From: Cellvibrio sp.
GTDB taxonomy: Bacteria; Pseudomonadota; Gammaproteobacteria; Pseudomonadales; Cellvibrionaceae
DNA length: 64,000 nt
Reading direction: 5' to 3'
Assembly (NCBI RefSeq): GCF_039207905.1
Contig: NZ_JBCECX010000007.1
Location: 62,467 to 126,466, forward strand
In this document: positions 2 through 63,641 of the stretch, piece after piece
Layout of the letters: each line of letters begins with the position of its first letter
Position numbering within the stretch: the stretch's first letter is position 1
The notes under the pieces: generated by a model
What the model was told of the DNA's origin: nothing
The model's input: the letters and a program-made list of their open reading frames with translations, nothing else
Database searches by the model: none
Translations under genes and position numbers: made by a program

Positions 2-2794
2 AATCCTGCCAGCAGCAATAATGTCACCATTAATTTGCCCAGCACTAATACGCGCTATTTACGCTTAAATGTCACCAGCAACAACGGCTGGCCTGCAGCG
101 CAAATTTCCGAGTTGGAAGTTTATGGCGATAATAATCCTGCGCTGCCTGCTGTACCGCAAAATCTTTCATCAACTGGCAAAACCAGCTCCAGTATTTCAC
201 TCACCTGGACGGCAGCAGCCGGTGCCGATGGTTATGAAATTTTGCGCAACGGTACTTTCCTCACCACTAGCCTAGGTACAACATTTACCGATAATGGCTT
301 ATCGGCAAGCACAGCCTACAGCTACAGCGTGCGTGCATTTAATAGTGCCGGTAGCTCAAGCCCGAGCAATAGCATTAATGTGACCACCGATAGCATTAAC
401 CAAAATCCGCAAGTAGTAAAAGTATCCGGAGGTAAGCCAGTCACAGCGAGTTCTGCATTGGGATTTTTACCCGCGACCAATACCGTTGATAACAATGCAG
501 CAACTTATTGGGAGAGCAACAACAATGCGTTTCCGCAAACATTGACGATTGATTTGGGGAGCACCCATCGCGTGAGCAAAGTTGTTTTGAAATTACCCAA
601 TGATCCAGCCTGGGCAACACGCACGCAAAATTTATCGGTATTGGGTAGCAGTAACGGCACTGCATTTAATACCTTGGTAAATACAGCGGGATACGTATTT
701 AATCCAGCATCGGCAAATACGGTAACCATTAATTTTGCAGAAACGGCGACGCGTTTTGTGCGTGTGAATATCACGGGCAATACCGGTTGGACTGCAGCGC
801 AGTTGTCGGAATTTGAAGTACATGGATATCCCGACCCAGTGCCGCCAGCTACACCGCAAAATCTTGTGGTTGCCGGTGGAACTTCATCGTCTTTGTATCT
901 CAGTTGGAATGCCACCGACCTCGCGACAGGCTACAAAGTATTGCGCAACAATGTGGTGGTTGCCGATGTCACAACTAACTCGTATCAAGATACAGGTTTA
1001 ACTGAAAGCACCAGCTACAGTTATACAGTGCGCGCCTATAACAGCTTTGGGAATTCAGCATTAAGCTCTGCAGTTACTGGCACAACACTCGCGAAAAATC
1101 AGGACCCGGGTCCGACTGATAAACGCGGTGCCACTATGCCCTACACAATTTATCAAGCGGAAGATGGTGTAATTGGCGGCGGTGCGCAATTAGTGGGGCC
1201 AAATCGGATTGTGGGTGATCTTGCGGGTGAAGCTTCTGGCCGTCGCGCAGTAACCTTAAACAGCAATGGCAGCTACGTGGAATTCACCACTAACGAAACC
1301 ACCAATACTTTGGTCACACGCTTTTCGATTCCAGATGCAGCAGGTGGCGATGGCATTACTGCCACATTGAATATTTATGTGAATGGCCAGTTTGAAAAAG
1401 CCATCACACTAAATTCAAAACATGCGTGGATGTATGGCTCAGAAACCCAACCAGGCAATAGTCCGAGTGCAGGACATGCACGGCATATTTACGATGAAGC
1501 CAACATCATGTTTGACCGCACTATTCCGATCGGCAGTAAAATTCGTTTGCAAAAAGATGCACAAAACACGTCGCAATACGCCATCGATTTTATTAGCTTG
1601 GAACAAGTAACACCTGTTCCCAATCCAAACCCAAGCGCATTTATTACACCGACTGGTTTCACCCACCAGGCAGTGCAAAATGCATTGGACCAAGCACGTA
1701 TGGGGAATGCACAGGGCGTTTATTTACCTGCGGGGACGTACCAAACGGCGCAAAAATTCCAGATCTATGGCAAGTCAATCAAAGTGATTGGTGCTGGCCC
1801 TTGGTATACCCGTTTTGAAACACCGACCAATCAATCCAATACCGACGCAGGATTTTCCGTTAACAGCACAGCAAACGGTACCAGCTTTGCCAACTTCAGT
1901 TTCTTTGGCAATTACACCAGCCGTATTGATGGCCCTGGAAAAGTATTTGATTTGAATGGTGTATCCAACGTAACTATCGACAATATCTGGACTGAACACA
2001 CAGTGTGTATGTTCTGGGGCGCAAGCGTGCACAACATCACCATTAAAAATTCGCGCATGCGCAATTTATTTGCAGATGGTGTTAACTTCACTAACGGCAG
2101 CAGCGGCAACCATGTAGTCAACAATGAAGCACGCACTACTGGTGATGACAGTTTTGCATTATTTGCAGCAACCGATAACGGCGGCGGCATTGTGCAAAAT
2201 AATTTATTTGAAAACCTCACTGCCATGACACCCTGGCGCGCCGCTGGTTTGGCTTCTTATGGTGGGCAAGGCAATACCTTTAAAAATATCCACGTGGAAG
2301 ATGCCTTGGTATATTCCGGTGTAACCATCAGCTCATTGGATTTTGGTTATCCATTCACAGGCTTCCAGTCGAACCCAACCACTAACTTTGAAGGTATTAC
2401 CATTCTGCGCTCAGGCGGGACATTCTGGAATAACCAGGTATTCCCCGCGCTGTGGATGTTCTCTGCCTCAAAAAGCTTCCAGGGCATTCGCATTCGCGAT
2501 CTGGATATTATTGACCCCACTTTCCACGGCATTATGTTTCAAACCAATTATGTCGGCGGGCAGCGGCAAAATATTTTTCAGGACACTATTTTCACTAACG
2601 TCACTATTTCCGGCGCCCATCCAAATCCCGCTTACCCGAACCGCTCCGGTTACGGCATTTGGGCAAACCCATTACCAGAAGCAGGCCAGGGTTGCGCCGC
2701 AGGACAAGTGGAATTTAATAACCTGACACTGATCAACAACGGCGTGAATATTAAGAATGATTGCCCGAGTGATTTCAGTATTACGGTGAGATAA
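2..2794 (+). CDS. Secreted multidomain glycoside hydrolase, 5'-truncated by the window edge. It has F5/8 type C (discoidin/CBM32-like) and FN3 repeats followed by a beta-sandwich and a right-handed beta-helix catalytic region. GH87-like (alpha-1,3-glucanase/mycodextranase type).
   Basis: The frame is open from nt 2. The first residues (..NNVTINLPSTNTRYLRLNVTSNNGWPAAQISELEVYG) repeat the end of the later discoidin module (..TVTINFAETATRFVRVNITGNTGWTAAQLSEFEVHG), so the TTG at 35 is not the real start. There are two FN3-like modules (SSISLTWTAA..YSYSVRAFN and SSLYLSWNAT..YSYTVRAYN). The C-terminal part (YTIYQAEDGVIGGG..., repeated NVTI/NITI rungs, TTGDDSF) resembles GH87 catalytic regions as recalled from memory. 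Confidence 0.75.
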   Translation, partial: NPASSNNVTINLPSTNTRYLRLNVTSNNGWPAAQISELEVYGDNNPALPAVPQNLSSTGKTSSSISLTWTAAAGADGYEILRNGTFLTTSLGTTFTDNGLSASTAYSYSVRAFNSAGSSSPSNSINVTTDSINQNPQVVKVSGGKPVTASSALGFLPATNTVDNNAATYWESNNNAFPQTLTIDLGSTHRVSKVVLKLPNDPAWATRTQNLSVLGSSNGTAFNTLVNTAGYVFNPASANTVTINFAETATRFVRVNITGNTGWTAAQLSEFEVHGYPDPVPPATPQNLVVAGGTSSSLYLSWNATDLATGYKVLRNNVVVADVTTNSYQDTGLTESTSYSYTVRAYNSFGNSALSSAVTGTTLAKNQDPGPTDKRGATMPYTIYQAEDGVIGGGAQLVGPNRIVGDLAGEASGRRAVTLNSNGSYVEFTTNETTNTLVTRFSIPDAAGGDGITATLNIYVNGQFEKAITLNSKHAWMYGSETQPGNSPSAGHARHIYDEANIMFDRTIPIGSKIRLQKDAQNTSQYAIDFISLEQVTPVPNPNPSAFITPTGFTHQAVQNALDQARMGNAQGVYLPAGTYQTAQKFQIYGKSIKVIGAGPWYTRFETPTNQSNTDAGFSVNSTANGTSFANFSFFGNYTSRIDGPGKVFDLNGVSNVTIDNIWTEHTVCMFWGASVHNITIKNSRMRNLFADGVNFTNGSSGNHVVNNEARTTGDDSFALFAATDNGGGIVQNNLFENLTAMTPWRAAGLASYGGQGNTFKNIHVEDALVYSGVTISSLDFGYPFTGFQSNPTTNFEGITILRSGGTFWNNQVFPALWMFSASKSFQGIRIRDLDIIDPTFHGIMFQTNYVGGQRQNIFQDTIFTNVTISGAHPNPAYPNRSGYGIWANPLPEAGQGCAAGQVEFNNLTLINNGVNIKNDCPSDFSITVR

Positions 2795-2813
2795 TTAAGT
2801 TAACAATAAGAGA

Positions 2814-2849
2814 CAAAAAAACCTGTTGAGTAATCAACAGGTTTTTTTT
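2814..2849. terminator. Bidirectional rho-independent terminator between convergent genes
   Basis: A 9-bp perfect stem (acctgttga / tcaacaggt) with loop gtaa is flanked by an A-run upstream and a T-run downstream. Confidence 0.85.
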
Positions 2850-2913
2850 GTGAGCCAGCTTTTGCAAACAATTCGCCACGATCAAAAACCAGTCACTGCC
2901 GAAAACTTATTCC

Positions 2914-4434
2914 TTAATAAGCCGAGCAGTTATCGCGGATAAATTGATCCTGGCTGGGGAGTTTTTTTACGTAAGCTTCCATCGTCTCTGCATAATCAAG
3001 CATCTTCTTCTTTGCACTTTCGTAATCCATTTCTTCAATCAATGGAGAATACTTACGTGGGCGAACGCCCATTCCTTCGGCAACAGAGCGCCAGTTTACG
3101 GAATGGAATAATGCATCAATCATATCAGGGAGACCGCCTTGGACTTTATAGTAATCCATAGTCTCCTTCAGGGATGGCGGCAGCTCCATATTTTTGCACC
3201 AGCGCCAGAAGGCAGTGTCTTCACGTTCAGTCATGCAATAATGCAGTACGATAAAATCGCGAATTTCTTCGTATTCTACAATCATACGGCGATTGTATTG
3301 ATTGATTAATGCAGGATCGCAATCTTTGTCAGGGAAGTTGCGCAGCAAATGTACCATTCCCCGTACGGTTAAATGAATGGCTGTTGACTCAAGCGGCTCG
3401 ATAAAACCGGAAGCCAAGCCAATCGAAATACAATTCTTCTTCCAGATTTCATCGCGCACACCAGTGCGGAATGGGATAACTTTTGGTTCGAGTAAAATTT
3501 TACCATCAAGCGTACTTTTCAAAGTATTCAATGCTTCGTCGTCACTGCAATACTGGCTCGCGTAAACATAGCCGGTACCTATACGACGCTGCAAAGGAAT
3601 ACGCCAGATCCAGCCATAATCCGCAGCAGTAGCGCGAGTGAAGGGAACTGTCTCATCTACTTTTTCAATCTGTGTTGCGATTGCGCGATCACAAGGCAAG
3701 TAATGGGTCCAGTCGCGATAGGTTGAGCCCAAGGTTTTTTCAATCAACAGTGCGCGAAAGCCGCTGCAATCTACAAAAAAGTCTGCCGCTACCGTTTCGC
3801 CAGAAGCTAACACCACGCTGGCAATGGCGCCATCGTCGCGCTGTATCACTTCAACCACTTTACCTTCAGTGCGCACCACACCGCGCGCCTCTGCATACTG
3901 GCGCAAATATTCCGCCACCAGTTTTGCATCCAGATGCAATGCGTAACGCGCTTCGCTAACAGGTGAATTTTCCAGAAGTTGTGGTAAATAAAAGCGGCGA
4001 TGTTTCGCCATAATGTTGCACGGTGAAAAATCCTGCAGACCAAACTTATCCCCCTGGTGTGCACTCTTCAGCCACATTTGAAAGAAAATCTGCTCATTCA
4101 TTCCTGCGGTAATTGTACCGAAAGGATGAAAATAACTTTCGCCTTTGCGCAGCCAGTTATCAAACTGGATACCCAATTTAAAACTGCCTTGGGTATATTT
4201 AACAAAATCCTGTTGATTAATTCCGAGATTAGTAAGCATCTCCAGAAAAGGCGGAATGGTGGATTCGCCTACACCAACAGTGCCAATTTCTGACGATTCA
4301 ATTAATTCTATTTTGACCGATGAGGGAGAATAGTCAGGCTTTGCCATATGATTAGCCAGCATCGATGCGGCAACCCAACCTGCAGTACCACCCCCAACAA
4401 TGACGATTTTTTCCAAGGGTTTTATCATATACAT
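2914..4434 (-). CDS. Flavin-dependent halogenase-like protein (tryptophan halogenase family), paralog 1
   Basis: Motifs seen: FAD-binding IVGGGTAGW, GVGESTIP, GSFKLGIQFDNW (Lys at the PrnA K79-equivalent position), the WxWxIP motif as GWIWRIPLQ, and GFIEPLESTAI. Confidence 0.85.
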   Translation of the reverse strand: MYMIKPLEKIVIVGGGTAGWVAASMLANHMAKPDYSPSSVKIELIESSEIGTVGVGESTIPPFLEMLTNLGINQQDFVKYTQGSFKLGIQFDNWLRKGESYFHPFGTITAGMNEQIFFQMWLKSAHQGDKFGLQDFSPCNIMAKHRRFYLPQLLENSPVSEARYALHLDAKLVAEYLRQYAEARGVVRTEGKVVEVIQRDDGAIASVVLASGETVAADFFVDCSGFRALLIEKTLGSTYRDWTHYLPCDRAIATQIEKVDETVPFTRATAADYGWIWRIPLQRRIGTGYVYASQYCSDDEALNTLKSTLDGKILLEPKVIPFRTGVRDEIWKKNCISIGLASGFIEPLESTAIHLTVRGMVHLLRNFPDKDCDPALINQYNRRMIVEYEEIRDFIVLHYCMTEREDTAFWRWCKNMELPPSLKETMDYYKVQGGLPDMIDALFHSVNWRSVAEGMGVRPRKYSPLIEEMDYESAKKKMLDYAETMEAYVKKLPSQDQFIRDNCSAY

Positions 4435-4533
4435 GCCCTGCTTTTATTGTTAGAAGGACCTGCTTTTTAGAGGTCCGCTGTGTCTATAAGCAATATTTAA
4501 TTTAGTTAGCCCAATTTAATTAGCCAAATGTAG

Positions 4534-6048
4534 TTACGCCATTTCTTCTGCGGCGCAATACTGTGCAATAAAATCAGCGTGATCCGGCGTGTCTGCAACT
4601 GCCATGCGCAATGATTCGCGCATCCGCTCCAGATTTTGTGCGAGCATTGTTTCATCCAGCTGATCAACCTGGGCATCGTAGACATCAGGCAGATAATCAA
4701 AGCCTTCAAAAATTGCCAGCCAACTGGGGACATGGAACATTTCCCAACGGTAATTCACTACATGACCAGTTGATTTAAACAATTCCATTTTGTGTTGCAG
4801 CGAATCGGGAATACTCATCGCGCGGCAATAGCGCCAGAATTCTGAATCATCGCGACCATTTAATTTGTAATGCAGCACAACAAAATCACGTACACGCTCG
4901 TATTCCAACACGGTGGTTTCGTTAAACTCACGCGCAATAGTGTCGTTGTATTGGCAGGCTGCCAACAGCGAACGGATTCGTTCAATACCGGTTTGGATCA
5001 ATGCAATACTGGTGCTTTCCAAGGGCTCTAAAAAGCCGCCAGCTAAACCCAGTGCGATACAATTTTTATTCCACGCCAGTTTGCGCCGCCCGGGTTTAAA
5101 CATAATTTTGCGCGGTTCATGCAGTGGTTCGCCGGTAATATTATTGAGCAGTATTTCGCGCGCGATTTCGTCACGCATAAACTGACTGGAAAAAACGTGC
5201 CCATTACCCACGCGGTGCTGCAGTGGAATTTTCCACTGCCAGCCAGCAGGGCGAGCAGTAACATCGGTGAATGAATTAGGTGGCGCTACCGATTTGCTTT
5301 GCACCGCATAAGCGCGATCACACAGCAGCCACTGACTCCAATCTTCATAACCGGTTTGCAGTGCTTGTTCACTCAGGATCGCATTAAAGCCAGAGCAATC
5401 AATAAATAAATCCGCCTCACAAGTCAAACCGGAATCGAGTTGTACCGATTCGATATAACCATCGTTATCGCGACGCTTGACGTTAATGATTTTTGCATCG
5501 ATGCGTTTTACACCGTTATTTTCTGCATGTTTCCGCAGCATCTTGGCAAACAGTGCCGCATCAAAATGCAATGCCCAATCAAATACTGAAAGTGATGAAG
5601 GGGGATTTTTTGCAGGGAAAGTAAATTTGCTGTTTTTTGCCAGCATCACACCGAGGGAATAATCACCCAACTCGGCAGCCATATTTTTGCGGCGCATTTT
5701 CAACCAGTAGTGATGAAACTCAGTGCCTTTTAACGATTGCCCGTACACACCGAAGGGATGAACAAAACGAGAGCCGGGTTTGTGCCAATCGTGAAACTGA
5801 ATGCCGAGCTTGCAGGTTCCGCGCGTTGCACGGATTACATCCACATCACTCAGGCCAAGGTTGTAATAGAAATGGCGAATAGCGGGAATAGTTGCTTCAC
5901 CCACACCGATAGTGCCAATTTCAGAGGATTCGATTAGCGTAATATCAATACGCTCTTTGAAGTGGTGCTTGAGGCTAGCTGCGGCCATCCATCCTGCCGT
6001 ACCGCCACCGACGATAATCATGCTTTTTACTGCGCGCATATTCATCAC
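4534..6048 (-). CDS. Flavin-dependent halogenase-like protein (tryptophan halogenase family), paralog 2
   Basis: Motifs seen: IVGGGTAGWMAA, GVGEATIP, GTCKLGIQFHDW, GWQWKIPLQ and GFLEPLESTSI. It lies in tandem with paralog 1, downstream of the TBDR on the same strand. Confidence 0.85.
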   Translation of the reverse strand: MMNMRAVKSMIIVGGGTAGWMAAASLKHHFKERIDITLIESSEIGTIGVGEATIPAIRHFYYNLGLSDVDVIRATRGTCKLGIQFHDWHKPGSRFVHPFGVYGQSLKGTEFHHYWLKMRRKNMAAELGDYSLGVMLAKNSKFTFPAKNPPSSLSVFDWALHFDAALFAKMLRKHAENNGVKRIDAKIINVKRRDNDGYIESVQLDSGLTCEADLFIDCSGFNAILSEQALQTGYEDWSQWLLCDRAYAVQSKSVAPPNSFTDVTARPAGWQWKIPLQHRVGNGHVFSSQFMRDEIAREILLNNITGEPLHEPRKIMFKPGRRKLAWNKNCIALGLAGGFLEPLESTSIALIQTGIERIRSLLAACQYNDTIAREFNETTVLEYERVRDFVVLHYKLNGRDDSEFWRYCRAMSIPDSLQHKMELFKSTGHVVNYRWEMFHVPSWLAIFEGFDYLPDVYDAQVDQLDETMLAQNLERMRESLRMAVADTPDHADFIAQYCAAEEMA

Positions 6049-6097
6049 ATCATTGTTATGTTTTTATCAATGTAACCAGATTCCCTGATTACGCTGG

Positions 6098-6135
6098 AAT
6101 TACTCCGGGCAACTGTGCTGCTGCCCGGAGTAATT
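6098..6135 (-). other. Intercistronic stem-loop between the TBDR and the halogenase-like genes (no U-tract)
   Basis: A 13-14 bp perfect inverted repeat (aattactccgggca / tgcccggagtaatt) with a ~10-nt loop lies 20 nt downstream of the TBDR stop on the minus strand. Confidence 0.6.
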
Positions 6136-6155
6136 TACTCGGTCAAACTTACTGC

Positions 6156-9100
6156 TTAGAACTTGGCGCGGACGCCGATAGAGTAACGCGCTTCGTTGTC
6201 ATACACGAAGGACGCTTGCTCTACACCTTCAGCCAAACGATAGACTTGTTTTTCGTCTTCGCTGGTGAGGTTGGCAACCTGGGCATATACCGTTACATCA
6301 TCCACTACATCGTAGCTGACGTTCAGGTCGACATAAGTAGTGCCCTTGGCAAAAACCGCTTGGTTCAATGGACCGTAATCCTGTACGAAGCGATCGTCGC
6401 GGCCGTTAACTGCAACACGCGCCTGCAACTTGTCCTGTTGATACCACACAATAAAGTTGTAGGTGTTTTCCGAGTTGTTAGCAAACGGATATTTTTCACC
6501 AGTTACGTCAGATGCTAGACCCGGACGCTCACTCGGTGAGTAAGTGTAGTTAACATCCACACCAAAGTTGCTGAGGAAGTTGTCGGTGAGGTCACTGAAT
6601 GCGAGTTTCGCACCCAATTCCAAACCTTTCACTTCACCGCCCTTACCAACTACCGGGCCATCACCTTTGATGTTGTAGGTTTTGCCTCTGGATACCACAT
6701 CGATATAACTTTCTTTTTGCTCAACAAAGGATTCAATCTCGACGAGATAGGCACCCATGTTAAACATACTCGCTTCACCGAAATAATATTCCGCAGAGAT
6801 GTCGTAGTTAGTACTCAACCATGGATCGAGGTTGATATCCGCCTGTGAGTTCCAACCACTCGGGATACGTTGGGTTGAGTCATCCGGATCCGGACCGGTG
6901 AACACGTTCAAACTGGAACCGTAACGGAACAAATCCAATTCCTGTTTGTTTTTCGCTGCGCTCAAACGCAACTTAACGTCCTCAGCAACATCCCACGCAA
7001 GGTTCAAAGATGGCAGCACATCGGTGCGGCTCTTCTTGTTAGTTTCGCGGCCAGTGTAGTAATGCGAACCACCGTAAGCGCGCTGCACGCCGGTACTTTG
7101 ATAAACGTTGGCCGATATCTCGGACTCAATCACTTTCACACCGAGAGTACCCGAGACAGGGCCAGCAACGAAGTTGCCGACGAGGTAACTGCTCAACTCA
7201 TCCAGAGTCACTGTGTAGCTGTTTGCTGGCGCAATGATTTTTTTGATGTCATTGAACGCTTTGCGGTTAAACGCTTCAGGATTATCAAAGGTGGTTGGAT
7301 CAACTGCCCAGAAACCGGGGATACCTTTCGCGTATTTACCCAAGTCAGTTACGAATTGCAGCTTCTCACCGAAATGATCCAGCGGCTGTGGTGGCAATAC
7401 GAAGTATGGAGTGAATGACGCCGGATCACTTCCAACCAAACGCTCACCCGCAGAACATTCAGCACCACTGCCACCGCCATCAAATTTCTGGTCGATTGAA
7501 CGCCACATCGCATAACAACCAGTGATGTTGCTGGCGTTTGGCAAATCAGGGCCAGTGAGACGGTTGTTGGAGTTCACGTAGAATTGTGCCCAGTAGTCAT
7601 AAGCTTCTACATCAACTGAACGGGTGCTGCCACGCAGGCCAACCTCTACATCAGTAATGAATGAATCTTCAAACTTGTAATTCACGTGAGCACTGAAGGC
7701 TCTCATTTTGGCCGAGGTGTCGTTGTCTTGCTCCAACTGCTCACCTTCCATGATCCAACTGTCTTTGTTGGCCATATAAGTGGCGAGTGATTTTTCACCG
7801 CTGGCATCGGTTAAACCACCAGCAATGTTTTGGTCGAAACCACTCCAGTGTGCAGTGTGTCCCTTGTAGTTCAAACCAAGCAGTGGATCTTCGTTATAGC
7901 CTTTAGGGTTAGGCAATACAAAGCGACCACCGTTAACACCTACTTCGCCCAAACGATCCGGATCAAGCACCAAACCATATTGCTCAACCACATCTTTTGG
8001 ATAGAAATGGCCGTACAGGCGTTGCACTGTGTCGCCACGGAAACTGTTGATACCGCCCTGTGCTGTCGCAAACAACACATTGTTATAGGCTTCCGCACTG
8101 ATCGCACGCAAACCACCGGTAAGCGCACCATCATTGTCAAAATTCAATTCAACATTGAAGTTTTTAGAACCCGCATCGATCACGCGGTTACCGCCAATCG
8201 ATTGCAACCACAGTGGCTCTACACTGAATTGGTCGGCAATGATCCACTCGCGGCCATCTTTGCCGGTAATTGAATCAGAGCTGTGAGTTGGTACAGCGAT
8301 TTGCGCACCGGTCCAACCATTTTGATATTGGTCATCCCACATAGCTTTGCGTTCATCGCTGAGCGCGGTCATACCCTGCCAGCGGTTGGAAATGTTCAAG
8401 CCCACTTCGCGTTGGTATTCTTTGGCTTGGGTATAGAAACCTTCTACCACCAATTCCAAACCATTACCGAGGTCCGCTTGCAACGCGGCGTTCACACCAT
8501 CGCGGCTACGCTCGTTCGCGGAGCGGGAGAAACGATAACCGTGGTTTTGGTTAACCGTCCACTTACCTTCAAATGCACTGCCTGGGCCCATTTGATAAGC
8601 ACCCGGATCACCTGCGCGCCCGGCATAATCGTTCGCCAGATTTTTTTCGCCGGTAACACCGGAGACCATCACACCGAGGTTTTCATTGCGCCAGTTAATC
8701 AAGGCGTTGATAGTACTATCCATCTCATCGCTGATTTCACCGTTAGAAAGATCGTAGCCACCGGCTGCGCTGAATCCTTCTTTGAAATCCATCGGACGGA
8801 AGGTTTTGATATCGATAGTACCGGTAATACCGGACACCGAATTGGTTACATCCAAACTTTTGTATACGTCTGCTGCGCGCAATAATTGCGCAGGCACATC
8901 GCCAAAGTCAGGTTGCGCACCAGCCAGATTACCCGCAGCGAGGAATTGCTCGCCGTTCATCATTACTGCAACCTGATCCATACCGCGCACACTCAGGCGC
9001 GAACCTTCACCCGCATTACGCTGGATTTGCACACCGGTAATACGCTGCAAAGAGTCAGTAATCGTAACGTCGGGTAACTTACCCACGTCTTCAGCGGAGA

Positions 9101-9296
9101 TGCCGTCAACGATAGATTTGGCTTCGCGCTTGGTGGCGATCGCGCTTTGTTGCGCGCCCTTCACACCAAGGACAACTACCTCTTCGACTGAATCAGCACC
9201 ATCCTGTGCAAATGCTTGTGTACCTATGCCAAATACCGCATAGGACGCTATCGCACTTGCAATAAGTTTTTTCTTAAAGCCTCGTTTCGTGTTCAT
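6156..9296 (-). CDS. TonB-dependent outer-membrane receptor (large, oligosaccharide-type)
   Basis: Signal peptide ending AFAQD; plug region (SIVDGISAEDVGKLPDVTITDSLQRITGVQIQRNAGEG); 1046 aa; beta-barrel C-terminus ending in Phe (SIGVRAKF). Confidence 0.9.
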   Translation of the reverse strand: MNTKRGFKKKLIASAIASYAVFGIGTQAFAQDGADSVEEVVVLGVKGAQQSAIATKREAKSIVDGISAEDVGKLPDVTITDSLQRITGVQIQRNAGEGSRLSVRGMDQVAVMMNGEQFLAAGNLAGAQPDFGDVPAQLLRAADVYKSLDVTNSVSGITGTIDIKTFRPMDFKEGFSAAGGYDLSNGEISDEMDSTINALINWRNENLGVMVSGVTGEKNLANDYAGRAGDPGAYQMGPGSAFEGKWTVNQNHGYRFSRSANERSRDGVNAALQADLGNGLELVVEGFYTQAKEYQREVGLNISNRWQGMTALSDERKAMWDDQYQNGWTGAQIAVPTHSSDSITGKDGREWIIADQFSVEPLWLQSIGGNRVIDAGSKNFNVELNFDNDGALTGGLRAISAEAYNNVLFATAQGGINSFRGDTVQRLYGHFYPKDVVEQYGLVLDPDRLGEVGVNGGRFVLPNPKGYNEDPLLGLNYKGHTAHWSGFDQNIAGGLTDASGEKSLATYMANKDSWIMEGEQLEQDNDTSAKMRAFSAHVNYKFEDSFITDVEVGLRGSTRSVDVEAYDYWAQFYVNSNNRLTGPDLPNASNITGCYAMWRSIDQKFDGGGSGAECSAGERLVGSDPASFTPYFVLPPQPLDHFGEKLQFVTDLGKYAKGIPGFWAVDPTTFDNPEAFNRKAFNDIKKIIAPANSYTVTLDELSSYLVGNFVAGPVSGTLGVKVIESEISANVYQSTGVQRAYGGSHYYTGRETNKKSRTDVLPSLNLAWDVAEDVKLRLSAAKNKQELDLFRYGSSLNVFTGPDPDDSTQRIPSGWNSQADINLDPWLSTNYDISAEYYFGEASMFNMGAYLVEIESFVEQKESYIDVVSRGKTYNIKGDGPVVGKGGEVKGLELGAKLAFSDLTDNFLSNFGVDVNYTYSPSERPGLASDVTGEKYPFANNSENTYNFIVWYQQDKLQARVAVNGRDDRFVQDYGPLNQAVFAKGTTYVDLNVSYDVVDDVTVYAQVANLTSEDEKQVYRLAEGVEQASFVYDNEARYSIGVRAKF

Positions 9297-9633
9297 GGAC
9301 TTCTCCGTTCACCGATTTATGGAATTATTTTTTACGCGTGTTTCAATAAATCCCCAATGTTGAACTTGCGTACTTGTCTTATAGATCAAACACACAAATC
9401 ACCCCCAAAGGGTAAGGGTGAATTCATCGTTATTCATTATGTAAATAAATTTTGGTAGTTAGCTAAGAGGGCTGCGTCAAGGAATAGCTTTTTATTTTTT
9501 GTCGATTGTAGAAGCGCGCACATAAATTAAAACCTTATTTTTTATCCCTGTGACAACGTGCAACCTTTTAATTTTTATCATCTTAATAACGGCGCCAGAA
9601 GAATGTCCATAGCTAAAAATAGCCTAGACAAAA

Positions 9634-9647
9634 AGAAATCGTTTTCA
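9634..9647. promoter_or_regulatory. LacI-family-type operator, site 1 (AGAAATCGTTTTCA)
   Basis: 14-bp near-palindrome with a central CG, matching the generic LacI/CcpA-type pattern TGnAAnCGnTTnCA. Confidence 0.55.
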
Positions 9648-9653
9648 ATTTTT

Positions 9654-9667
9654 TGAAATCGATTTCA
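9654..9667. promoter_or_regulatory. LacI-family-type operator, site 2 (TGAAATCGATTTCA)
   Basis: Perfect 14-bp palindrome, 20 bp centre-to-centre from site 1. Confidence 0.6.
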
Positions 9668-9715
9668 AGTTAAAAATAATTTTTTATTTAGCAAATAAAT
9701 TTTTTGTGAATTTTC

Positions 9716-9729
9716 TGAAAACGTTTTCA
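9716..9729. promoter_or_regulatory. LacI-family-type operator, site 3 (TGAAAACGTTTTCA)
   Basis: Perfect 14-bp palindrome that extends to a 24-bp palindrome (ttttctgaaaacgttttcagaaaa, 9711-9734). Confidence 0.6.
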
Positions 9730-10113
9730 GAAAATTAATTGAAACGAAAATAGTCACTCGACAGAGAGTGATTTTAATGCGCAGAAAAACAAATCCGGAT
9801 TGCCAATGAAAAAGTGTGAGGATAAAACAACAGGGCAATGACGAAATGACAGCAGACTATTGATTGATCGAAAACAACGCTTTGTTTAAGAGGATGCGCT
9901 TGCAGGGCAAACACCGGCAGCCAAGACCACAATAGCTCCGCACCTGTGATGCGCTTAGCCATCGACCCACTATGGATAAGACGTAATGTGGAACCCCACG
10001 CCGGTGGGCTTTTCGCTATAATCGCCAGCAACTACACGATTGCGCTAATAAATGGCCAACTGCGCCCGCCGCTACTGCCGGTGCAGATAACCTCTAATAA
10101 CCTAGAATTCGCT

Positions 10114-11607
10114 ATGCATAGCAAACCGCAACTCGGTTTCTGGCAGATATGGAACCTCTGCTTTGGCTTTTTCGGCATCCAATTCGGATTTGCCCTACAG
10201 AACGCCAATGTGAGCCGCATCTTTCAGATTCTCGGCGCGCCCATTGAAGAGATCCCCATCCTCTGGGTTGCTGCTCCCATCACCGGCCTGCTGATCCAGC
10301 CGGTTATCGGCTATATGAGCGATAAAACCTGGCATCGCAACGGCCGCCGCCGCCCCTATATTTTGTGCGGTGCGATTGCCGCAACCCTCGCACTGCTGGT
10401 GATGCCCAATTCCCCTGAACTCTGGATCGCCGCGGGCATGCTCTGGGTACTCGATGCCTCGCTCAATATCGCCCTCGCACCATCCATTGCGATGGTGAGC
10501 GATATGCTGCCAGACAAGCAGCGTTCGGCCGGATTTTCCATGCAGAGTTTTTTTATCGGTGTGAGCGCGGTGGTCGCATCGGCATTGCCGTGGATTTTGA
10601 ATAACTGGCTGGACATCGCCAACACCGCCCCGCAGGGCCATGTACCACCATCGGTGACTTATGCATTCTATATAGGCGCAGCAATTTTATTGCTCAGCCT
10701 GTTATGGTCAGCCTACAGCACACCCGAATACAGCCCGGAGCAGATGGCCACCTTCCAGCGCTGGCGCGATGAGCAAAAACTGGATGTGATCGAGCAGCAA
10801 TACACCGGCTTCTCGCGTTGGGGAACGATTTTTTTAGCCGCCGGGATTATCGCCACCGCATTAATCCCGATTGCCTCACTCGACCACAAACTCTATGTGC
10901 TCAGTCTTGGTGTTGTGTTGTTCGGGTTGCTACAACTCGCCGCTGGCACATTGCAAAACGCCGGTCGCACCGACAACGCGCTCTACCAGATTACCCGCGA
11001 TATGGTGCTGATGCCGCGCACCATGCGCCAGCTGGCAATCGTGCAATGCCTGTCCTGGTTTGCGTTATTTTCCATGTGGATTTACACCACTGCAGCGGTA
11101 ACCTCGCATCACTATCACAGCACCGATCCGACCTCCCTCGCCTACAATCAGGGCGCAGATTGGGTCGGTATTTTATTCGCCGCCTACAATGGCTTTGCTG
11201 CACTCGCCGCCGTTGCTATTCCACTACTGGTGCGCAAAACCAATCGCAAGATTACCCATATGATCAACCTGTGTTTCGGCGCGCTCGGCCTGATCTCATT
11301 TTTATTTATCGAAGATCCTCATTGGTTACTGCTGGCAATGGTTGGCGTCGGCTTCGCCTGGGCCTCTATTCTCGCCCTGCCCTTGGCGATGCTTACCAGC
11401 GCATTGCCACCCGCCAAGATGGGTGTGTATGCAGGAATTTATAATTTTTTTATTGTCATACCCCAGATACTCGCCTCCAGTATCCTTGCGCTGGTGGTGA
11501 GCAAATTCTTCGGTGGCCAACCGATTTACGCTATCGTCTGCGCCGGGGGCTTTATGATTCTTGCCGCTATCGCCACCGCATTTGTCGATGACACCAGCAA
11601 TAGCTAA
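10114..11607 (+). CDS. MFS permease of the GPH/SLC45 (sucrose/alpha-glucoside:H+ symporter-like) type
   Basis: Sequence GFWQIWNLCFGFFGIQFGFALQNANVSRIFQ...PITGLLIQPVIGYMSDKTW..GRRRPY, with about 12 predicted TM segments. The start was moved to the ATG at 10114 (MHSKPQLGFW). The ORF-track start at 9946 adds 56 non-membrane residues and is less likely. Confidence 0.8.
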   Translation: MHSKPQLGFWQIWNLCFGFFGIQFGFALQNANVSRIFQILGAPIEEIPILWVAAPITGLLIQPVIGYMSDKTWHRNGRRRPYILCGAIAATLALLVMPNSPELWIAAGMLWVLDASLNIALAPSIAMVSDMLPDKQRSAGFSMQSFFIGVSAVVASALPWILNNWLDIANTAPQGHVPPSVTYAFYIGAAILLLSLLWSAYSTPEYSPEQMATFQRWRDEQKLDVIEQQYTGFSRWGTIFLAAGIIATALIPIASLDHKLYVLSLGVVLFGLLQLAAGTLQNAGRTDNALYQITRDMVLMPRTMRQLAIVQCLSWFALFSMWIYTTAAVTSHHYHSTDPTSLAYNQGADWVGILFAAYNGFAALAAVAIPLLVRKTNRKITHMINLCFGALGLISFLFIEDPHWLLLAMVGVGFAWASILALPLAMLTSALPPAKMGVYAGIYNFFIVIPQILASSILALVVSKFFGGQPIYAIVCAGGFMILAAIATAFVDDTSNS

Positions 11608-11636: not shown

Positions 11637-12881
11637 ATGCCAGCCAGTATTGAAGCATTGATCAACAGTATTTATCGCAGCGAGTCGCGCCGTGTATTGG
11701 CGACCTTGATTCGCCTGCTAAAAGATTTTGATCTCGCCGAAGAAGCATTACAGGACGCATTCGCAGCCGCCATGCAGCAATGGCCACACGAAGGTGTACC
11801 GCAAAACCCGCGCGCCTGGCTGGTATCGACTGGTCGCTTCAAAGCGATTGACCAAATCCGCAAACGCGCGCGCTTTAATACCTCATGGGAAGACGTTGCC
11901 GAGCAATTGGAAGATGAGCTACACAGTGAGGACGCGGATTATTCTGAACTCCACATTGAAGATGACCAGCTGCGCCTGATATTCACCTGCTGCCACCCGA
12001 GCCTTGCGCCTGAAGCGCAAATGGCACTGACCCTGCGCGAAATTTGCGGGCTGACGACTGAGGCCATCGCGCGCGCCTTCCTCACTACGCCCAGCACACT
12101 CGCGCAACGTATAGTGCGCGCTAAAAATAAAATCCGCGATGCAAAAATTCCCTACGAAATTCCCGGCCGCAGCGAGTTACCCGAGCGGCTCGACGCAGTG
12201 CTGCATGTAATTTATTTAGTATTTAACGAAGGATATTCCGCTTCTTCCGGCAGCGAATTAACTCGGCAGGAATTGGCACAAGAGGCAATCCGGTTGGGGC
12301 GATTGCTCGCACAGCTACTACCGGAAGCAGAGGTGCTTGGACTGCTTGCGCTAATGCTGATCCAGGATTCACGCCACCATGCACGCATCGATAGCAACGG
12401 CGATTTGATTCGCTTGGAAGATCAGGATCGTCGTTTATGGAATCATGAACAAATTGCCGAAGGTTCAGCGCTCATCCAGCGCGCACTCAGCAGCAGTGAG
12501 GTTGATGTCTATTGCCTGCAAGCCGCCATAGCGGCGCTCCATGCCGAATCACCCAGTTTTGCCGACACCGATTGGAGTGAGATTTGTGGCTTCTACGATT
12601 TATTATTAGTCCGCAATCCATCGCCGGTGATTGAACTCAATCGCGCTGTAGCCATCGCCATGCGCGATGGTGCAGCAGCAGGCCTGACACTGGTCGATAG
12701 CTTGGTCGCACGCCAACAACTAACTGATTACTACCTGCTCCACGCCGCCCGCGCCGATTTGTTAGCCCAACTTGGGGAACTTGACGCCGCCAGTGCTGCC
12801 TATGCTATGGCGCTGGAATTAACCGATCAAGAACCTGAACGTCGGTTTCTGCGTAAAAAGCTGATGGACGTAAAACCGTAA
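11637..12881 (+). CDS. ECF sigma factor with a ~230-aa C-terminal TPR-like extension (COG4941 / ECF42-like)
   Basis: Sigma region 2 (RVLATLIRLLKDFDLAEEALQDAFAAA..PRAWLVSTGRFKAIDQIRK), region 4 HTH (ALTLREICGLTTEAIARAFLTTPSTLAQRIVRAKNKI) and a long helical C-terminal extension. No adjacent anti-sigma gene. Confidence 0.8.
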   Translation: MPASIEALINSIYRSESRRVLATLIRLLKDFDLAEEALQDAFAAAMQQWPHEGVPQNPRAWLVSTGRFKAIDQIRKRARFNTSWEDVAEQLEDELHSEDADYSELHIEDDQLRLIFTCCHPSLAPEAQMALTLREICGLTTEAIARAFLTTPSTLAQRIVRAKNKIRDAKIPYEIPGRSELPERLDAVLHVIYLVFNEGYSASSGSELTRQELAQEAIRLGRLLAQLLPEAEVLGLLALMLIQDSRHHARIDSNGDLIRLEDQDRRLWNHEQIAEGSALIQRALSSSEVDVYCLQAAIAALHAESPSFADTDWSEICGFYDLLLVRNPSPVIELNRAVAIAMRDGAAAGLTLVDSLVARQQLTDYYLLHAARADLLAQLGELDAASAAYAMALELTDQEPERRFLRKKLMDVKP

Positions 12882-13396: not shown

Positions 13397-14062
13397 ATGC
13401 GGATCCTATTGATCGAAGACGATCAAATGATTGGAGAATCAGTTTCCGAAAGCCTGAAAAACTCCGGTTACGCAGTTGACTGGGTAAAGGATGGCAACTC
13501 TGGTCTCAACGCCATTTCTTGCCAACAATACGATCTGCTATTACTCGATTTGGGACTGCCGCAAAAAGATGGCATCGATGTTTTGCGCACAATTCGAAAG
13601 CAGCAATCCCCCCTTCCCGTCATTGTACTCACTGCACGCGATGCACTCGAAGACCGCATTGTCGGGTTGGATGCAGGAGCAGATGACTATCTGGTAAAAC
13701 CCTTCGCGCTAGGCGAGTTAAATGCACGCATGCACGCAGTGCTGCGACGCCAATCAAACAACTCTGGCCCACATCTGGGCAATGGTATTATCTCGCTTGA
13801 TCCCGTCACTCGTGAAGCCTGCCTTACGGGCGCTACGCCGCTCCGGTTATCTGCGCGCGAATTCGCATTGCTGCAAGCGCTGCTGGTTCGCCCTGGCGCA
13901 ATTCTCTCTCGCGCAGACTTAGAAGAAAAAATTTATGCTTGGGGTGATGAAGTGGAAAGTAATGCGATTGAGTTTTTTATCCACTCATTACGTAAAAAAT
14001 TTGGCAGTGACATCATCAAGAATGTTCGGGGGCTGGGGTGGATGGTAGCAAAAGCAAGCTGA
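13397..14062 (+). CDS. OmpR-family response regulator (PmrA/BasR/QseB-like)
   Basis: Receiver domain (MRILLIEDD..LLLLDLGLP..KPF) plus a winged-helix output domain (LSAREFALLQALL..VESNAIEFFIHSLRKK). Confidence 0.9.
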   Translation: MRILLIEDDQMIGESVSESLKNSGYAVDWVKDGNSGLNAISCQQYDLLLLDLGLPQKDGIDVLRTIRKQQSPLPVIVLTARDALEDRIVGLDAGADDYLVKPFALGELNARMHAVLRRQSNNSGPHLGNGIISLDPVTREACLTGATPLRLSAREFALLQALLVRPGAILSRADLEEKIYAWGDEVESNAIEFFIHSLRKKFGSDIIKNVRGLGWMVAKAS

Positions 14063-15387
14063 GCAATTCGTTACAGTTTCGCCTATCGGTAGGTACAGCG
14101 ATTGCCATTTTGGTTGTCGCTCTGATCTCCGGTTTGTTTTCGTATTGGTGGGCATTCGAAGAAGCCATAGAACTGCAAGATGAGCAGCTTATCCGTTTGG
14201 CCGCGCTAGCAAATCGCCAACAAATTGTGCAACCCGCCGCAAATACACCCATTGAAATATCACGCGCAGATCCTGAATCACATTTTGTAGTGCAGTGGCT
14301 TGGCAATGCCAACACAGATGATGCAGTTGAGCTACCTGGCCTGCCTGAAAACTTACAAGACGGTTTACAAACTCATCAAGTGCAAAACACTTATTGGCGC
14401 ATACTGGTAAAAACATTTAATCATGGTGGGCGTGTAGTTGTTGCACAACAAACAGAGGTGCGTGATGAGATAGCGCGCACCAGCGCACTAAATACTCTCG
14501 TCCCACTTATTATTTTAATACCGCTGCTACTGATCTGGGTTGCCTATCTAATCCGCCAAGCTTTTGCGCCATTAAAAAAAATGGCACAACAGCTCGACCA
14601 GAGTAACGACAATAATTTAACCGCATTACCTGACCATAATTTAGCATCTGAAATCGCTCCATTTATAGGTGCAATTAACCACTTGCTTGCACGCGTACGC
14701 GACTCAATTGCACAACAGCGACAATTCGTGCGCGATGCCGCCCATGAACTCAGATCGCCGCTCACCGCTATCTCATTGCAAGCTGAACGCTTGGTGGAGC
14801 TGAGCCCAGACAAAGAAGACCTGCACACCAGACTCATTAATTTACACCGAGCCACTGAACGCACTCGCGTACTTATCGAGCAACTATTGACCATGGCAAG
14901 GGCACAGGATAATCAGATATCCGTGGGAAAAATGCTTTCCATTAAAGCCTTGCTGCGCGAGCTGTTGGAAGATCTTTTACCATTAGCGAATGTTAAAAAA
15001 ATTGATGTAGCAGTGATTGGCAATGACGTCCAGGTTTATAGCCAGCCAATTGATCTGCAAATACTTATTAAAAATTTAATCGAAAATGCCATCCACTACA
15101 CGCCAAAAAATGGGCATATTGAAATCATCTTAACCGACCATGGGGACAGCACAGAACTTTGTATATGTGATTCGGGACCAGGCATTGCACTTGCTGAACA
15201 AGAGCGAGTATTTGATCCCTTTTACCGGGTACTAGGTAATGACCAACCCGGCTCGGGGCTCGGACTATCAATCGTTCGCACAATCGCCACCAGACTAAAC
15301 ATCAAGGTAACACTTAATAATAATGACGCCGCAGAAAAAACCGGGCTATGCGCTCGCGTAATGTTTCCGCACACATCACTGAAATAA
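14038..15387 (+). CDS. Sensor histidine kinase (PmrB/BasS/QseC-like)
   Basis: Two TM segments, H-box AAHELRSPLTAI, N box LIENAIHYTP, and G boxes DSGPGI and GSGLGLSIV. It overlaps the response-regulator stop by 25 nt. The start codon (GTG) is uncertain. Confidence 0.85.
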   Translation: MDGSKSKLSNSLQFRLSVGTAIAILVVALISGLFSYWWAFEEAIELQDEQLIRLAALANRQQIVQPAANTPIEISRADPESHFVVQWLGNANTDDAVELPGLPENLQDGLQTHQVQNTYWRILVKTFNHGGRVVVAQQTEVRDEIARTSALNTLVPLIILIPLLLIWVAYLIRQAFAPLKKMAQQLDQSNDNNLTALPDHNLASEIAPFIGAINHLLARVRDSIAQQRQFVRDAAHELRSPLTAISLQAERLVELSPDKEDLHTRLINLHRATERTRVLIEQLLTMARAQDNQISVGKMLSIKALLRELLEDLLPLANVKKIDVAVIGNDVQVYSQPIDLQILIKNLIENAIHYTPKNGHIEIILTDHGDSTELCICDSGPGIALAEQERVFDPFYRVLGNDQPGSGLGLSIVRTIATRLNIKVTLNNNDAAEKTGLCARVMFPHTSLK

Positions 15388-15394
15388 TAGTTGC

Positions 15395-17050
15395 CTAGGT
15401 TGCTTTCCTGCAGGATCTGACTATATCTAACTCGGGGTTATAAATATCGGTCTGTAAGTTAAGCATGCTTAAAATGGTATGAAAGAAATAATCATGCGAG
15501 TAAGTATTACCAGCACCCACTCTTTCTAAACAAGGCCTATCAATATGATTTTCTGTTTGATAGGCAGCAGAAAGCCACATAAAAAGCGGTATTTGAGTTT
15601 GCTCCTTGGGGGCAATTGAATAGGGCATACCATGCAAATATAATCCCGATTCGCCAAGCGATTCCCCATGGTCAGAAAGATAAATTAATGCCGTATTATA
15701 TTTATCCCCCCGCTCCTTTAACCATTCAATAGTTTTATTGAGAAAATAATCCGTATAGCGGATCGTATTATCATAAGCATTCACAACTTCTTCATGTGTG
15801 CAATTTTGCAATTGATTAGTTGTGCACACCGGACTAAAAAATGTTTTGTCGTGCGGATAACGCTTGTAATAATCGGGACCATGACTCCCTTTCTGGTGCA
15901 GCACAATTACTTGGCTTGCAGCTGAAGAAGCAACCTTATCACCCAATTGATGCAGCAAAATTTCATCGAAACACTCTTCACTATTACACAGTAATGGCAC
16001 TTGTAAATGCTGCACATCTTCATAAGTGACCTGCGCGCAAGTGCCTTTACAGCTTGAATTGTTATCTCGCCACAACACCTCAATACCTGCCCGCTTAATT
16101 ACATCTAAAAGACCTTCTTGCGATTTAGCTTTAGTGTCCGAATAGTTGTCATGCCCCAAAGCAGAAAACATGCACGGCACGGACACAGCCGTTTCGGTAC
16201 CGCAGGATATGACGCTAGGGAAGTTAACAATATGTTGCTGTGCGATAAGCGGGGTTGTGTCGCGCCCATAACCATTAATACCAAAGTGATCAGCACGAGC
16301 TGTCTCACCCACAACCAAAATTAACAAAGTAGGTTTTTCTTGTGCTTTTCCCAGTGGACTCAGCGTCACATCAACACCTATAGGTTTTATCTCCAAAACT
16401 CGATTGTTCGTTGTTGCATATGAAAGTCCGGCATAAATGAAATTCAATGGATTAGCCATCTGGCGAATATTTTTATGGTTACGAAAGAAAGAGGCATAAT
16501 CCATAGACATACTTAAAATCAGTATTAAACAACTGACGAAAGCAACCACTATAAATTTTAACTTACGCCATATCTCCACCTTTAATTTTTCATAGCTTAT
16601 ACGAACGTTAAAGAGTAAGAGAGAGGGGAAAATCCCCAACACCAGAAAATACAGAACAAGACGTAAACTCAGAAGATCCAAAGATTCAGAGAAGTCGGTT
16701 TCTGCCACACTCTGAATCATCATACGATGAATAACCACACCGTAAGTGCCCATAAAATAAGAAACACCTGCTGACGTAATCAGCAGTACCGATAACACAG
16801 GCTTAAACACATAGGGAAATGTTATTAAAGAAATGACTATAAATGTTAGCAGCCACAACACAATGCTAAGGTTAATAATAAAAATTATGCCTCTCAGACT
16901 GCCGTAGTCGATAAGATGAAAAATCGCACCAAAAAACGAAGTATTGTAAAAGGCAATAAAACAGAGCGCAGATATCCATGCAGCCTGGATAGAACTCACA
17001 CCTGTCCCAATCCTTACAGATCGTGCCGACATCAATATACTCAAAGACAT
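15395..17050 (-). CDS. eptA: Lipid A phosphoethanolamine transferase (EptA/PmrC/MCR family)
   Basis: Five N-terminal TM helices plus a sulfatase-fold periplasmic domain carrying LILVVGETARADHF (nucleophile Thr motif) and IYLSDHGESLGE. Size is 551 aa. Confidence 0.85.
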   Translation of the reverse strand: MSLSILMSARSVRIGTGVSSIQAAWISALCFIAFYNTSFFGAIFHLIDYGSLRGIIFIINLSIVLWLLTFIVISLITFPYVFKPVLSVLLITSAGVSYFMGTYGVVIHRMMIQSVAETDFSESLDLLSLRLVLYFLVLGIFPSLLLFNVRISYEKLKVEIWRKLKFIVVAFVSCLILILSMSMDYASFFRNHKNIRQMANPLNFIYAGLSYATTNNRVLEIKPIGVDVTLSPLGKAQEKPTLLILVVGETARADHFGINGYGRDTTPLIAQQHIVNFPSVISCGTETAVSVPCMFSALGHDNYSDTKAKSQEGLLDVIKRAGIEVLWRDNNSSCKGTCAQVTYEDVQHLQVPLLCNSEECFDEILLHQLGDKVASSAASQVIVLHQKGSHGPDYYKRYPHDKTFFSPVCTTNQLQNCTHEEVVNAYDNTIRYTDYFLNKTIEWLKERGDKYNTALIYLSDHGESLGESGLYLHGMPYSIAPKEQTQIPLFMWLSAAYQTENHIDRPCLERVGAGNTYSHDYFFHTILSMLNLQTDIYNPELDIVRSCRKAT

Positions 17051-63608: not shown

Positions 63609-63641
63609 GATTCACCTGTTATTTTTTGTTATAAAACTGTT

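Follow-up and report, generated by a model that had tools for sequence, protein, structure and literature searches.

Gene content and regulation of the locus

The window analysed here is a stretch of 64,000 nucleotides (nt) from a 5.13-Mb draft genome of Cellvibrio sp. (C7:62467-126466; contigs are labelled C2, C3, C7 and so on). Close to its start lie three co-oriented genes on the - strand, which encode a TonB-dependent receptor (6156-9296) and two flavin-dependent halogenases, designated HalA (4534-6048) and HalB (2914-4434). The coordinates of these open reading frames (ORFs) agree exactly with those in a preliminary description of this DNA. The features of the locus, in window coordinates, are the following:

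2-2794, + strand: GH87b, alpha-1,3-glucanase, the second of two tandem copies (Pfam CatAgl_D1, 254 bits; CatAgl_D2, 341 bits)
2815-2848, no strand assigned: intrinsic terminator, bidirectional, where the GH87 and HalB genes converge (15-bp stem, A-run and T-run at the flanks)
2914-4434, - strand: HalB, flavin-dependent halogenase of 506 amino acids, K86/E349, without signal peptide (PF04820, 568 bits)
4534-6048, - strand: HalA, flavin-dependent halogenase of the BrvH type, 504 amino acids, K80/E344, without signal peptide (PF04820, 594 bits)
6098-6135, - strand: GC-rich hairpin with a 16-bp stem and no U-tract, located 21 nt past the receptor stop codon
6156-9296, - strand: TonB-dependent receptor of the Xanthomonas/Caulobacter oligosaccharide type, 1046 amino acids (TIGR01782, Plug and barrel)
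9580-9609, - strand: promoter-like site for the receptor operon (TGGACA-18-TAAGAT, only a 9/12 consensus match)
9634-9729, no strand assigned: three LacI-type operator palindromes, TGAAAWCGWTTTCA, in the divergent receptor/MFS spacer (9634-9647, with one mismatch; 9654-9667; 9716-9729)
9946-11607, + strand: MFS/GPH sugar symporter (MFS_1, 90.7 bits; GPH_sucrose, 86 bits)

With the TIGR01782 profile the receptor reaches 407.5 bits (cut-off 310); its Plug and barrel domains score 43.7 and 77 bits, and its sequence reads as a signal peptide followed by the TonB box VEEVVVLGV. The divergent MFS symporter is likely to provide the inner-membrane step of glycan uptake. The wider locus comprises a secreted GH87a, encoded ahead of the window, GH87b, a GH97 alpha-glucosidase and a LacI-family regulator (C7:54200-55216). 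GH87b starts 383 nt ahead of the window (complete ORF, C7:62084-65260) and carries a signal peptide together with F5/8-type-C and Fn3 modules. In the GH97 ORF (C7:55462-57318), the match to the GH97_N profile sets in only at position 30, and the first in-frame start is not followed by a signal peptide; a miscalled start or a cytoplasmic enzyme may be the reason.

The TGAAAWCGWTTTCA palindrome has only four exact sites in the whole genome, and three of them are at this locus: two in the receptor/MFS spacer (9654-9667 and 9716-9729) and one between GH97 and GH87a (C7:57754). The fourth, C49:24783, lies beside unrelated-looking genes. When up to one mismatch is allowed, three sites are found in each of the two spacers, those between the divergent GH97 and GH87a genes falling at C7:57734-57887, about 4.6-4.7 kb ahead of the window. 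No such operator occurs in the receptor-HalA or HalA-HalB gaps. The shared predicted operators and the LacI gene define a small putative LacI regulon for alpha-1,3-glucan use.

No nonribosomal peptide synthetase (NRPS), polyketide synthase (PKS) or other scaffold-building gene is present at the locus. Its two GH87 genes, GH97, MFS, LacI and shared operators thus bear out the earlier view of a glycan-uptake locus rather than a secondary-metabolite cluster, and it is, by gene content, a predicted alpha-1,3-glucan utilisation regulon. In the closest named relative, Cellvibrio sp. UBA7661 (locus L030), the locus is syntenic, with 74-86% amino-acid identity, in the order ECF (extracytoplasmic function) sigma factor, MFS, receptor, HalA, HalB and GH87. 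Syntenic loci with MFS and/or GH87 were also found in Microbulbifer, Teredinibacter and two gammaproteobacterial metagenome-assembled genomes, the MFS gene being syntenic in L030, L033, L037 and L071.

HalA and HalB are predicted to be motif-intact flavin-dependent halogenases

Both translations contain every catalytic motif that the preliminary description had attributed to them: GGGTAGW, GVGEATIP, CKLGIQF, WQWKIP and EPLEST in HalA, and GGGTAGW, GVGESTIP, FKLGIQF, WIWRIP and EPLEST in HalB. WxWxIP is the family's mark of halogenation over monooxygenation. The PF04820 (Trp_halogenase) scores listed above, against a cut-off of 21 bits, back this reading, with alignments spanning profile positions 2-457 (HalA) and 1-457 (HalB) of 458. 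The two proteins are 39% identical to each other. Lys80/Glu344 of HalA and Lys86/Glu349 of HalB share alignment columns with K83/E349 of BrvH, and the same columns hold the catalytic Lys and Glu of PyrH and SttH. K83 is essential in BrvH, the K83A mutant being inactive, and E349 is the corresponding glutamate of that enzyme (PMC5945002). An AlphaFold model of HalB, built with 41 orthologs, reached a predicted local distance difference test (pLDDT) of 93.1 and a predicted template modelling score (pTM) of 0.91. It superposes on Xcc4156 (6Y1W) with a TM score of 0.94 and a root-mean-square deviation of 1.7 A, on 9LUQ with 0.92, on BrvH with 0.92-0.93, and on PrnA, RebH and PyrH with 0.87-0.90. 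A misalignment of the catalytic Lys and Glu, which would have undone the halogenase assignment, is refuted by the matching alignment columns and by the closeness of the HalB model to 6Y1W.

Lys, Glu, WxWxIP and GxGxxG are invariant among 42 HalB-type orthologs and in 23 of the 25 paralogs of this genome. Compared with UBA7661, HalA and the receptor have ratios of nonsynonymous to synonymous substitution rates (dN/dS) of about 0.07 and 0.06, respectively, and HalB shows a pN of 0.157 and a pS of 0.80, the latter being saturated. Both halogenase genes are clearly maintained, as this strong purifying selection indicates. The flavin-binding glycines (GxGxxG) begin at residues 14-15 in both proteins; their N-termini run directly into this motif and leave no room for an export signal, so the products are predicted to be cytoplasmic. 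Taken together, HalA and HalB are, on the evidence of motifs, profiles and alignment, predicted to be genuine flavin-dependent halogenases.

The best solved relative of HalA is BrvH (6FRL; 646.6 bits, E 3e-193), true tryptophan halogenases scoring about 230-265 bits. HalB scores 424 bits with 9LUQ, 390 with Xcc4156 and 388 with BrvH, and at most 286 with tryptophan halogenases. The preliminary description had proposed a phylogeny against characterised halogenases. In a tree that combined five solved enzymes with all halogenase paralogs of the genome, HalA clusters with BrvH (support 100/99) and HalB falls in a separate subclade together with C40_40907 and C32_9439 (100/99). Sequence comparison thus places both proteins in the BrvH/Xcc4156 "group C" clade and not among the free-tryptophan halogenases. 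Five other paralogs (C2:13370, C2:55055, C3:77399, C8:125924 and C34:7482) have the variant motifs GVGEG[ST][TW] and EPLEA[TS], with WIWDIG in three, and fall on the SttH/PyrH side of the tree, that of true tryptophan halogenases, apart from BrvH/Xcc4156.

The substrate site agrees with this placement. The region 1 substrate loop has 27 residues in HalA and HalB vs 42-47 in PyrH and SttH, and the YYHG...YS stretch of region 2 is missing from both proteins; they thus lack the loops that close over the amino and carboxyl groups of tryptophan and characterise free L-tryptophan halogenases. The indole-contacting residues equivalent to F443 and S447 of BrvH are kept in HalA and nearly kept in HalB, and are almost invariant across the 23 intact full-length paralogs of the genome. 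In vitro, BrvH and Xcc4156 brominate indoles, not tryptophan (PMC5945002, PMC7336383). Our literature search returned no paper assigning a native function to these halogenases, and the native substrate of the clade is still called unknown (PMC7336383, PMC7754283), in line with the earlier statement that the role of receptor-linked paralogs was unexplained. No tryptophanase was found in the genome, the best Beta_elim_lyase match reaching 35 bits, so free indole would not arise by that route.

The halogenases follow the receptor rather than the glycan

PF04820 was detected at 27 places in the genome, corresponding to about 25 genes since two contig-end fragments are halves of one gene, next to 33 TIGR01782 receptors. 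The fragments, C12:157596-158402 and C40:42423-42962, match HalA residues 1-277 and 284-501. They are evidently parts of a single HalA-type gene that an assembly gap has divided, which joins C12 and C40 into one beta-1,3-glucan locus containing GH81, receptor, HalA-type, HalB-type, GH3 and GH16 genes. Twenty-one of the 27 places lie on the same strand as a TIGR01782 receptor and no more than 3.3 kb from it, usually directly downstream with a gap of 110-210 nt, which gives 13 receptor-halogenase loci, each with one to four halogenase genes near the receptor. Two paralogs have lost the catalytic residues. A second cassette lies partly within the window, at 62217-64000, and partly beyond it (C7:124683-129103), with three halogenase-family genes downstream of the TIGR01782 receptor C7:129314-132523. 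In the middle one of the three (C7:126207-127556), GxGxxG, WxWxIP and the catalytic Glu have been lost.

The triad of receptor, BrvH-type HalA and HalB-type gene is present in three copies in the genome: at the GH87/GH97 locus of the window, with a beta-1,3-glucan set (GH81 with CBM56, GH16 and GH3), and with a GH9 enzyme. Identities between triads are 38-42% for the receptors, 57-65% for HalA and 47-61% for HalB. In the receptor tree the three receptors fall into a single clade, a pattern that is largely repeated in the halogenase trees and indicates that the triad duplicates as a block. The same order and strand are conserved across three proteobacterial classes, in Cellvibrio, Teredinibacter, Microbulbifer, Gilvimarinus, Thalassotalea, Pseudoalteromonas, Caulobacter, Phenylobacterium, Niveispirillum and Hydrogenophaga. 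Between Caulobacter and the window, HalA shows 58-62% identity but the receptor only about 40%. A comparison of copy numbers within the class, in which at most 10 candidates per genome were scored, revealed only a patchy occurrence of the halogenases (6 of 151 families positive).

The neighbours of foreign triads include a GH20 chitobiase in Thalassotalea, and there are no carbohydrate-active enzymes (CAZymes) beside those of Caulobacter segnis and Pseudoalteromonas prydzensis. We therefore rejected the idea that the HalA type is specific to alpha-glucan loci, the same pair being found by beta-1,3-glucan, GH9 and chitobiase genes or with no CAZymes at all. Since the triad recurs in unrelated glycan contexts, the halogenases appear, from this comparison of gene neighbourhoods, to follow the receptor independently of cargo chemistry. 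In P. prydzensis, a large SpvB/TcdB-N/FG-GAP protein is encoded upstream of the triad (L073:2-3931).

On the receptor tree, halogenase linkage is only moderately clustered, requiring 7 changes vs 10.5 in shuffles (11-12 of 500 shuffles were as low). A comparison of 13 linked with 20 other receptors revealed no residue, Trp or other, specific to the linked ones, which argues against a conserved halogenation site borne by the receptor. SapC and/or Cupin_8/JmjC genes accompany four other loci in the genome (contigs C28, C8, C3 and C2); neither SapC nor a JmjC/2OG (2-oxoglutarate) oxygenase is present at this locus between 2794 and 9946.

The hairpin between receptor and HalA

The preliminary description had noted a strong hairpin at 6098-6135 and had taken it as a sign of differential expression within one transcript. 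Its strength was confirmed: the 126-nt region folds at -41.8 kcal/mol (z = -5.35), none of 200 shuffles being as stable, and its 16-bp stem is kept in UBA7661 through two compensated pair changes (ACTCC/GGAGT vs ATCCC/GGGAT). Of the two parts of an intrinsic (Rho-independent) terminator, the stem is present and the U-run is lacking; the tail reads CCAGCGUA, and the terminator scan did not list the hairpin. We rejected a repeated element, as the hairpin has no second copy within the window.

Strong hairpins were found at each of the 11 junctions folded in this genome in which a halogenase gene directly adjoins the receptor, and at all 42 receptor-HalA junctions of related loci (median -27 kcal/mol). 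The HalA-HalB junctions, with a median gap of 16 nt, have a hairpin in only 2 of 19 cases. Terminator-like hairpins, usually with a U-run, also follow 17 of 19 TIGR01782-type receptors that lack halogenases but are found in only 7 of 33 control windows within coding sequence, so that the hairpin is a normal end-of-receptor element and not halogenase-specific. About 50 nt separate it from the HalA start, and no sigma-70-like promoter was matched there; in the HalA-HalB gap, the sole promoter-like match (4453-4424) overlaps the HalB start codon. The lack of a U-run, unusual among these hairpins, the short distance to HalA and the lack of a promoter-like site favour partial read-through or stabilisation of the 3' end of the receptor message, as far as can be predicted from the sequence.

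A further terminator-like hairpin, TCACCCTTACCCTTTGGGGGTGA followed by TTTGTGTGTT, lies on the - strand at 9399-9421. This places it in the leader of roughly 280 nt that separates the receptor start codon from the predicted promoter, where it might act as an attenuator; it matches no Rfam family.

Proposed role of the module and alternative explanations

We consider it probable that the two cytoplasmic, FADH2-dependent group C halogenases and the upstream receptor constitute an old three-gene module that has been copied as a unit and that works as follows. Alpha-1,3-gluco-oligosaccharides would release the repressor and allow transcription of the receptor, and some of the transcripts would read through the hairpin, which has no U-run, so that HalA and HalB would be co-expressed at a lower level. 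Each enzyme would use FADH2, O2 and halide to form hypohalous acid, which would be delivered via Lys80 or Lys86 to an indole-type ring. The open site, the missing loops for the tryptophan backbone and the conserved F443/S447 indole subsite suggest that this ring belongs to a substrate larger than free tryptophan. The imported glycan itself is not the expected substrate, because the same type of HalA/HalB pair serves receptors for chemically different cargo.

Several points weigh against this proposal. The relatives work very slowly in vitro, and the soil and freshwater in which Cellvibrio lives offer little bromide. Close and recent receptor paralogs without halogenases exist in the genome, which implies that the enzymes are not obligatory for receptor function. 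In addition, the hairpins after halogenase-free receptors make this element generic to receptor genes, and differential expression within one transcript is weakened accordingly. In an alternative view, the hairpin is a full stop, HalA and HalB form a separate transcription unit with an as yet unrecognised promoter of its own, and adjacency to the receptor reflects an inherited gene block and not co-expression. Canonical U-run terminators at most receptor-halogenase junctions, their equivalents after receptors without halogenases, and the presence of a conserved GATAAAAAYATAACAATGA immediately ahead of HalA in both the window and L030 all speak for it. We nevertheless find it doubtful, given that the hairpin of the window lacks the U-tract needed for efficient intrinsic termination, that the approximately 50 nt up to HalA contain no promoter-like site, and that the same-strand order is conserved over three proteobacterial classes.

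The nature of the target leaves room for further alternatives. HalA and HalB might modify, in the manner of MibH, Trp residues of a peptide or protein, such as the co-encoded receptor precursor or an envelope protein, with each enzyme acting at a different site or both as a heteromer. The active sites of BrvH and Xcc4156 are open, with a solvent-exposed lysine, and their authors suggested peptide substrates; the F443/S447 subsite is nearly invariant in the 23 intact paralogs while the remainder diverges; sister loci add SapC and Cupin_8/JmjC, the latter of protein-hydroxylase type; receptor and halogenase clades duplicate together; and, without tryptophanase, the genome offers no free indole by that route. 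We regard this as unlikely, however, because no residue distinguishes the 13 halogenase-linked receptors from the 20 others, close receptor paralogs do without halogenases, the locus holds no conserved small ORF (only unconvincing ORFs of 20-85 amino acids in the 650-nt receptor/MFS spacer came up as precursor-peptide candidates), and halogenated outer-membrane proteins have no experimental precedent. A receptor-coupled form of the idea, directed at Trp side chains of an envelope or uptake protein, of the receptor precursor or of a transported peptide, possibly by a heteromer, seems to us quite unlikely. If true, it would explain why some 25 paralogs keep one indole subsite and diverge elsewhere, and also the co-duplication with receptors, the company of JmjC-type hydroxylases and the sluggish activity on small molecules. 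A diffusible halogenated indole-type deterrent, released upon polysaccharide sensing against competitors or the fungus being eaten, would reduce the receptor link to a regulatory one. The relatives do brominate indole and its derivatives in vitro (PMC5945002, PMC7754283), alpha-1,3-glucan, beta-1,3-glucan and chitin are fungal-wall polymers, and the halogenases are independent of cargo chemistry; but the missing tryptophanase, the very low in vitro turnover on indole, the GH9 context, the CAZyme-free contexts in Caulobacter and Pseudoalteromonas, and some 25 paralogs in fixed subfamily pairs, hard to square with one simple product, make it very unlikely. For neighbourhoods of receptor, SapC, JmjC and halogenase genes, Iyer et al. 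(2010) proposed that a small halogenated compound, siderophore-like or another secondary metabolite, is made and then taken up by the receptor (PMC2938197). Halogenases elsewhere do work in natural-product pathways. Here, such a role is highly improbable: the receptor is of the TIGR01782 oligosaccharide type and shares LacI operators with GH87, GH97 and the sugar symporter, there is no NRPS, PKS or scaffold-building gene at the locus, and the genome has 13 such loci with different CAZymes at each. Finally, the proteins might no longer be halogenases, but flavin monooxygenases, non-catalytic partners or sensors in sugar uptake, given that none of the clade's members has a known native halogenated product and that two paralogs elsewhere in the genome lack catalytic residues. 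The invariance of Lys, Glu, WxWxIP and GxGxxG in 42 HalB-type orthologs and 23 of 25 paralogs, the loss of activity in BrvH K83A and the association of WxWxIP with halogenation leave this an extremely slim prospect.

The proposed three-gene module has implications beyond this locus. About 25 halogenase genes, roughly 0.7% of the genome, stand beside sugar-uptake receptors under strong purifying selection. That the enzymes follow the receptor and not the glycan argues against a sugar substrate as well as against the published siderophore idea. The locus itself is compact, with one repressor, a near-unique operator, two halogenase genes, neither SapC nor oxygenase, and alpha-1,3-gluco-oligosaccharides as the probable inducer class. 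Being so well delimited, it offers clean conditions for knock-outs, induction experiments and mass spectrometry aimed at halogens.

Neighbouring genes in the window

The gene that immediately follows the MFS symporter (11637-12881) encodes an ECF-type sigma factor ending in a DUF6596 domain; it is syntenic in UBA7661, and no anti-sigma gene is evident alongside. Further on (13397-17050) come an OmpR-type response regulator, a histidine kinase and a convergent membrane protein that, by eye only, resembles a phosphoethanolamine transferase; these genes appear unrelated to the glycan locus. Rfam searches gave no match of note (riboswitch or known RNA) across 2700-10000.

Comparison with known systems

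Like the carbohydrate utilisation (CUT) loci of Blanvillain et al. (2007), of which the sux locus is an example, the locus combines a receptor, an inner-membrane transporter, glycoside hydrolases and a repressor. The CUT definition differs in having no place for halogenases, which the main text of that paper does not mention (PMC1790865).

PrnA, RebH, PyrH, SttH and Thal share the fold, the Pfam family and the FAD/halide/Lys/Glu apparatus with HalA and HalB. Identity is only about 30%, however, and HalA and HalB, which have no biosynthetic cluster around them, also lack the two elements that grip the Trp backbone, an insert of 15-20 residues in region 1 and a YYHG-type loop in region 2. Xcc4156 from Xanthomonas campestris (6Y1W) and the enzyme of Pseudoalteromonas sp. 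L11 (9LUQ) are the best structural matches of HalB and have an equally open site, although they are about 40% identical to it and HalB belongs to a separate subclade. BrvH from Brevundimonas sp. BAL3 (6FRL) resembles HalA in its identical pocket M/F/S residues and in the shortness of both substrate loops, and it too has a second halogenase gene alongside (42.7% identical), as HalA has HalB. Unlike HalA, it has been characterised, solely in vitro, with C3 bromination of indole at a low rate and inactivity on Trp, and the BrvH paper does not discuss a receptor link.

The association of receptors and halogenases, which the preliminary description gave as noticed before, was published in 2010: Iyer et al. 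reported a neighbourhood of TonB receptor, SapC, JmjC/2OG oxygenase and one to three tryptophan halogenases and read it as synthesis of a halogenated siderophore-like compound (PMC2938197). As there, the receptor gene here is followed by halogenase genes, the arrangement spans alpha- and gamma-proteobacteria, and other loci of this genome include SapC and Cupin_8/JmjC. In contrast, the locus of the window has neither SapC nor oxygenase, and the published siderophore prediction does not fit it, because its receptor belongs to the oligosaccharide type, stands among CAZyme genes and is under predicted LacI control. Modules of this kind have thus been known since 2010, and the present locus is a further example. 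To that earlier account our analysis adds the regulon definition, the block duplication of the triad, evidence for the cargo independence of the enzymes and the generic nature of the hairpin, as well as arguments against a siderophore-like product and against a halogenation site conserved among the receptors.

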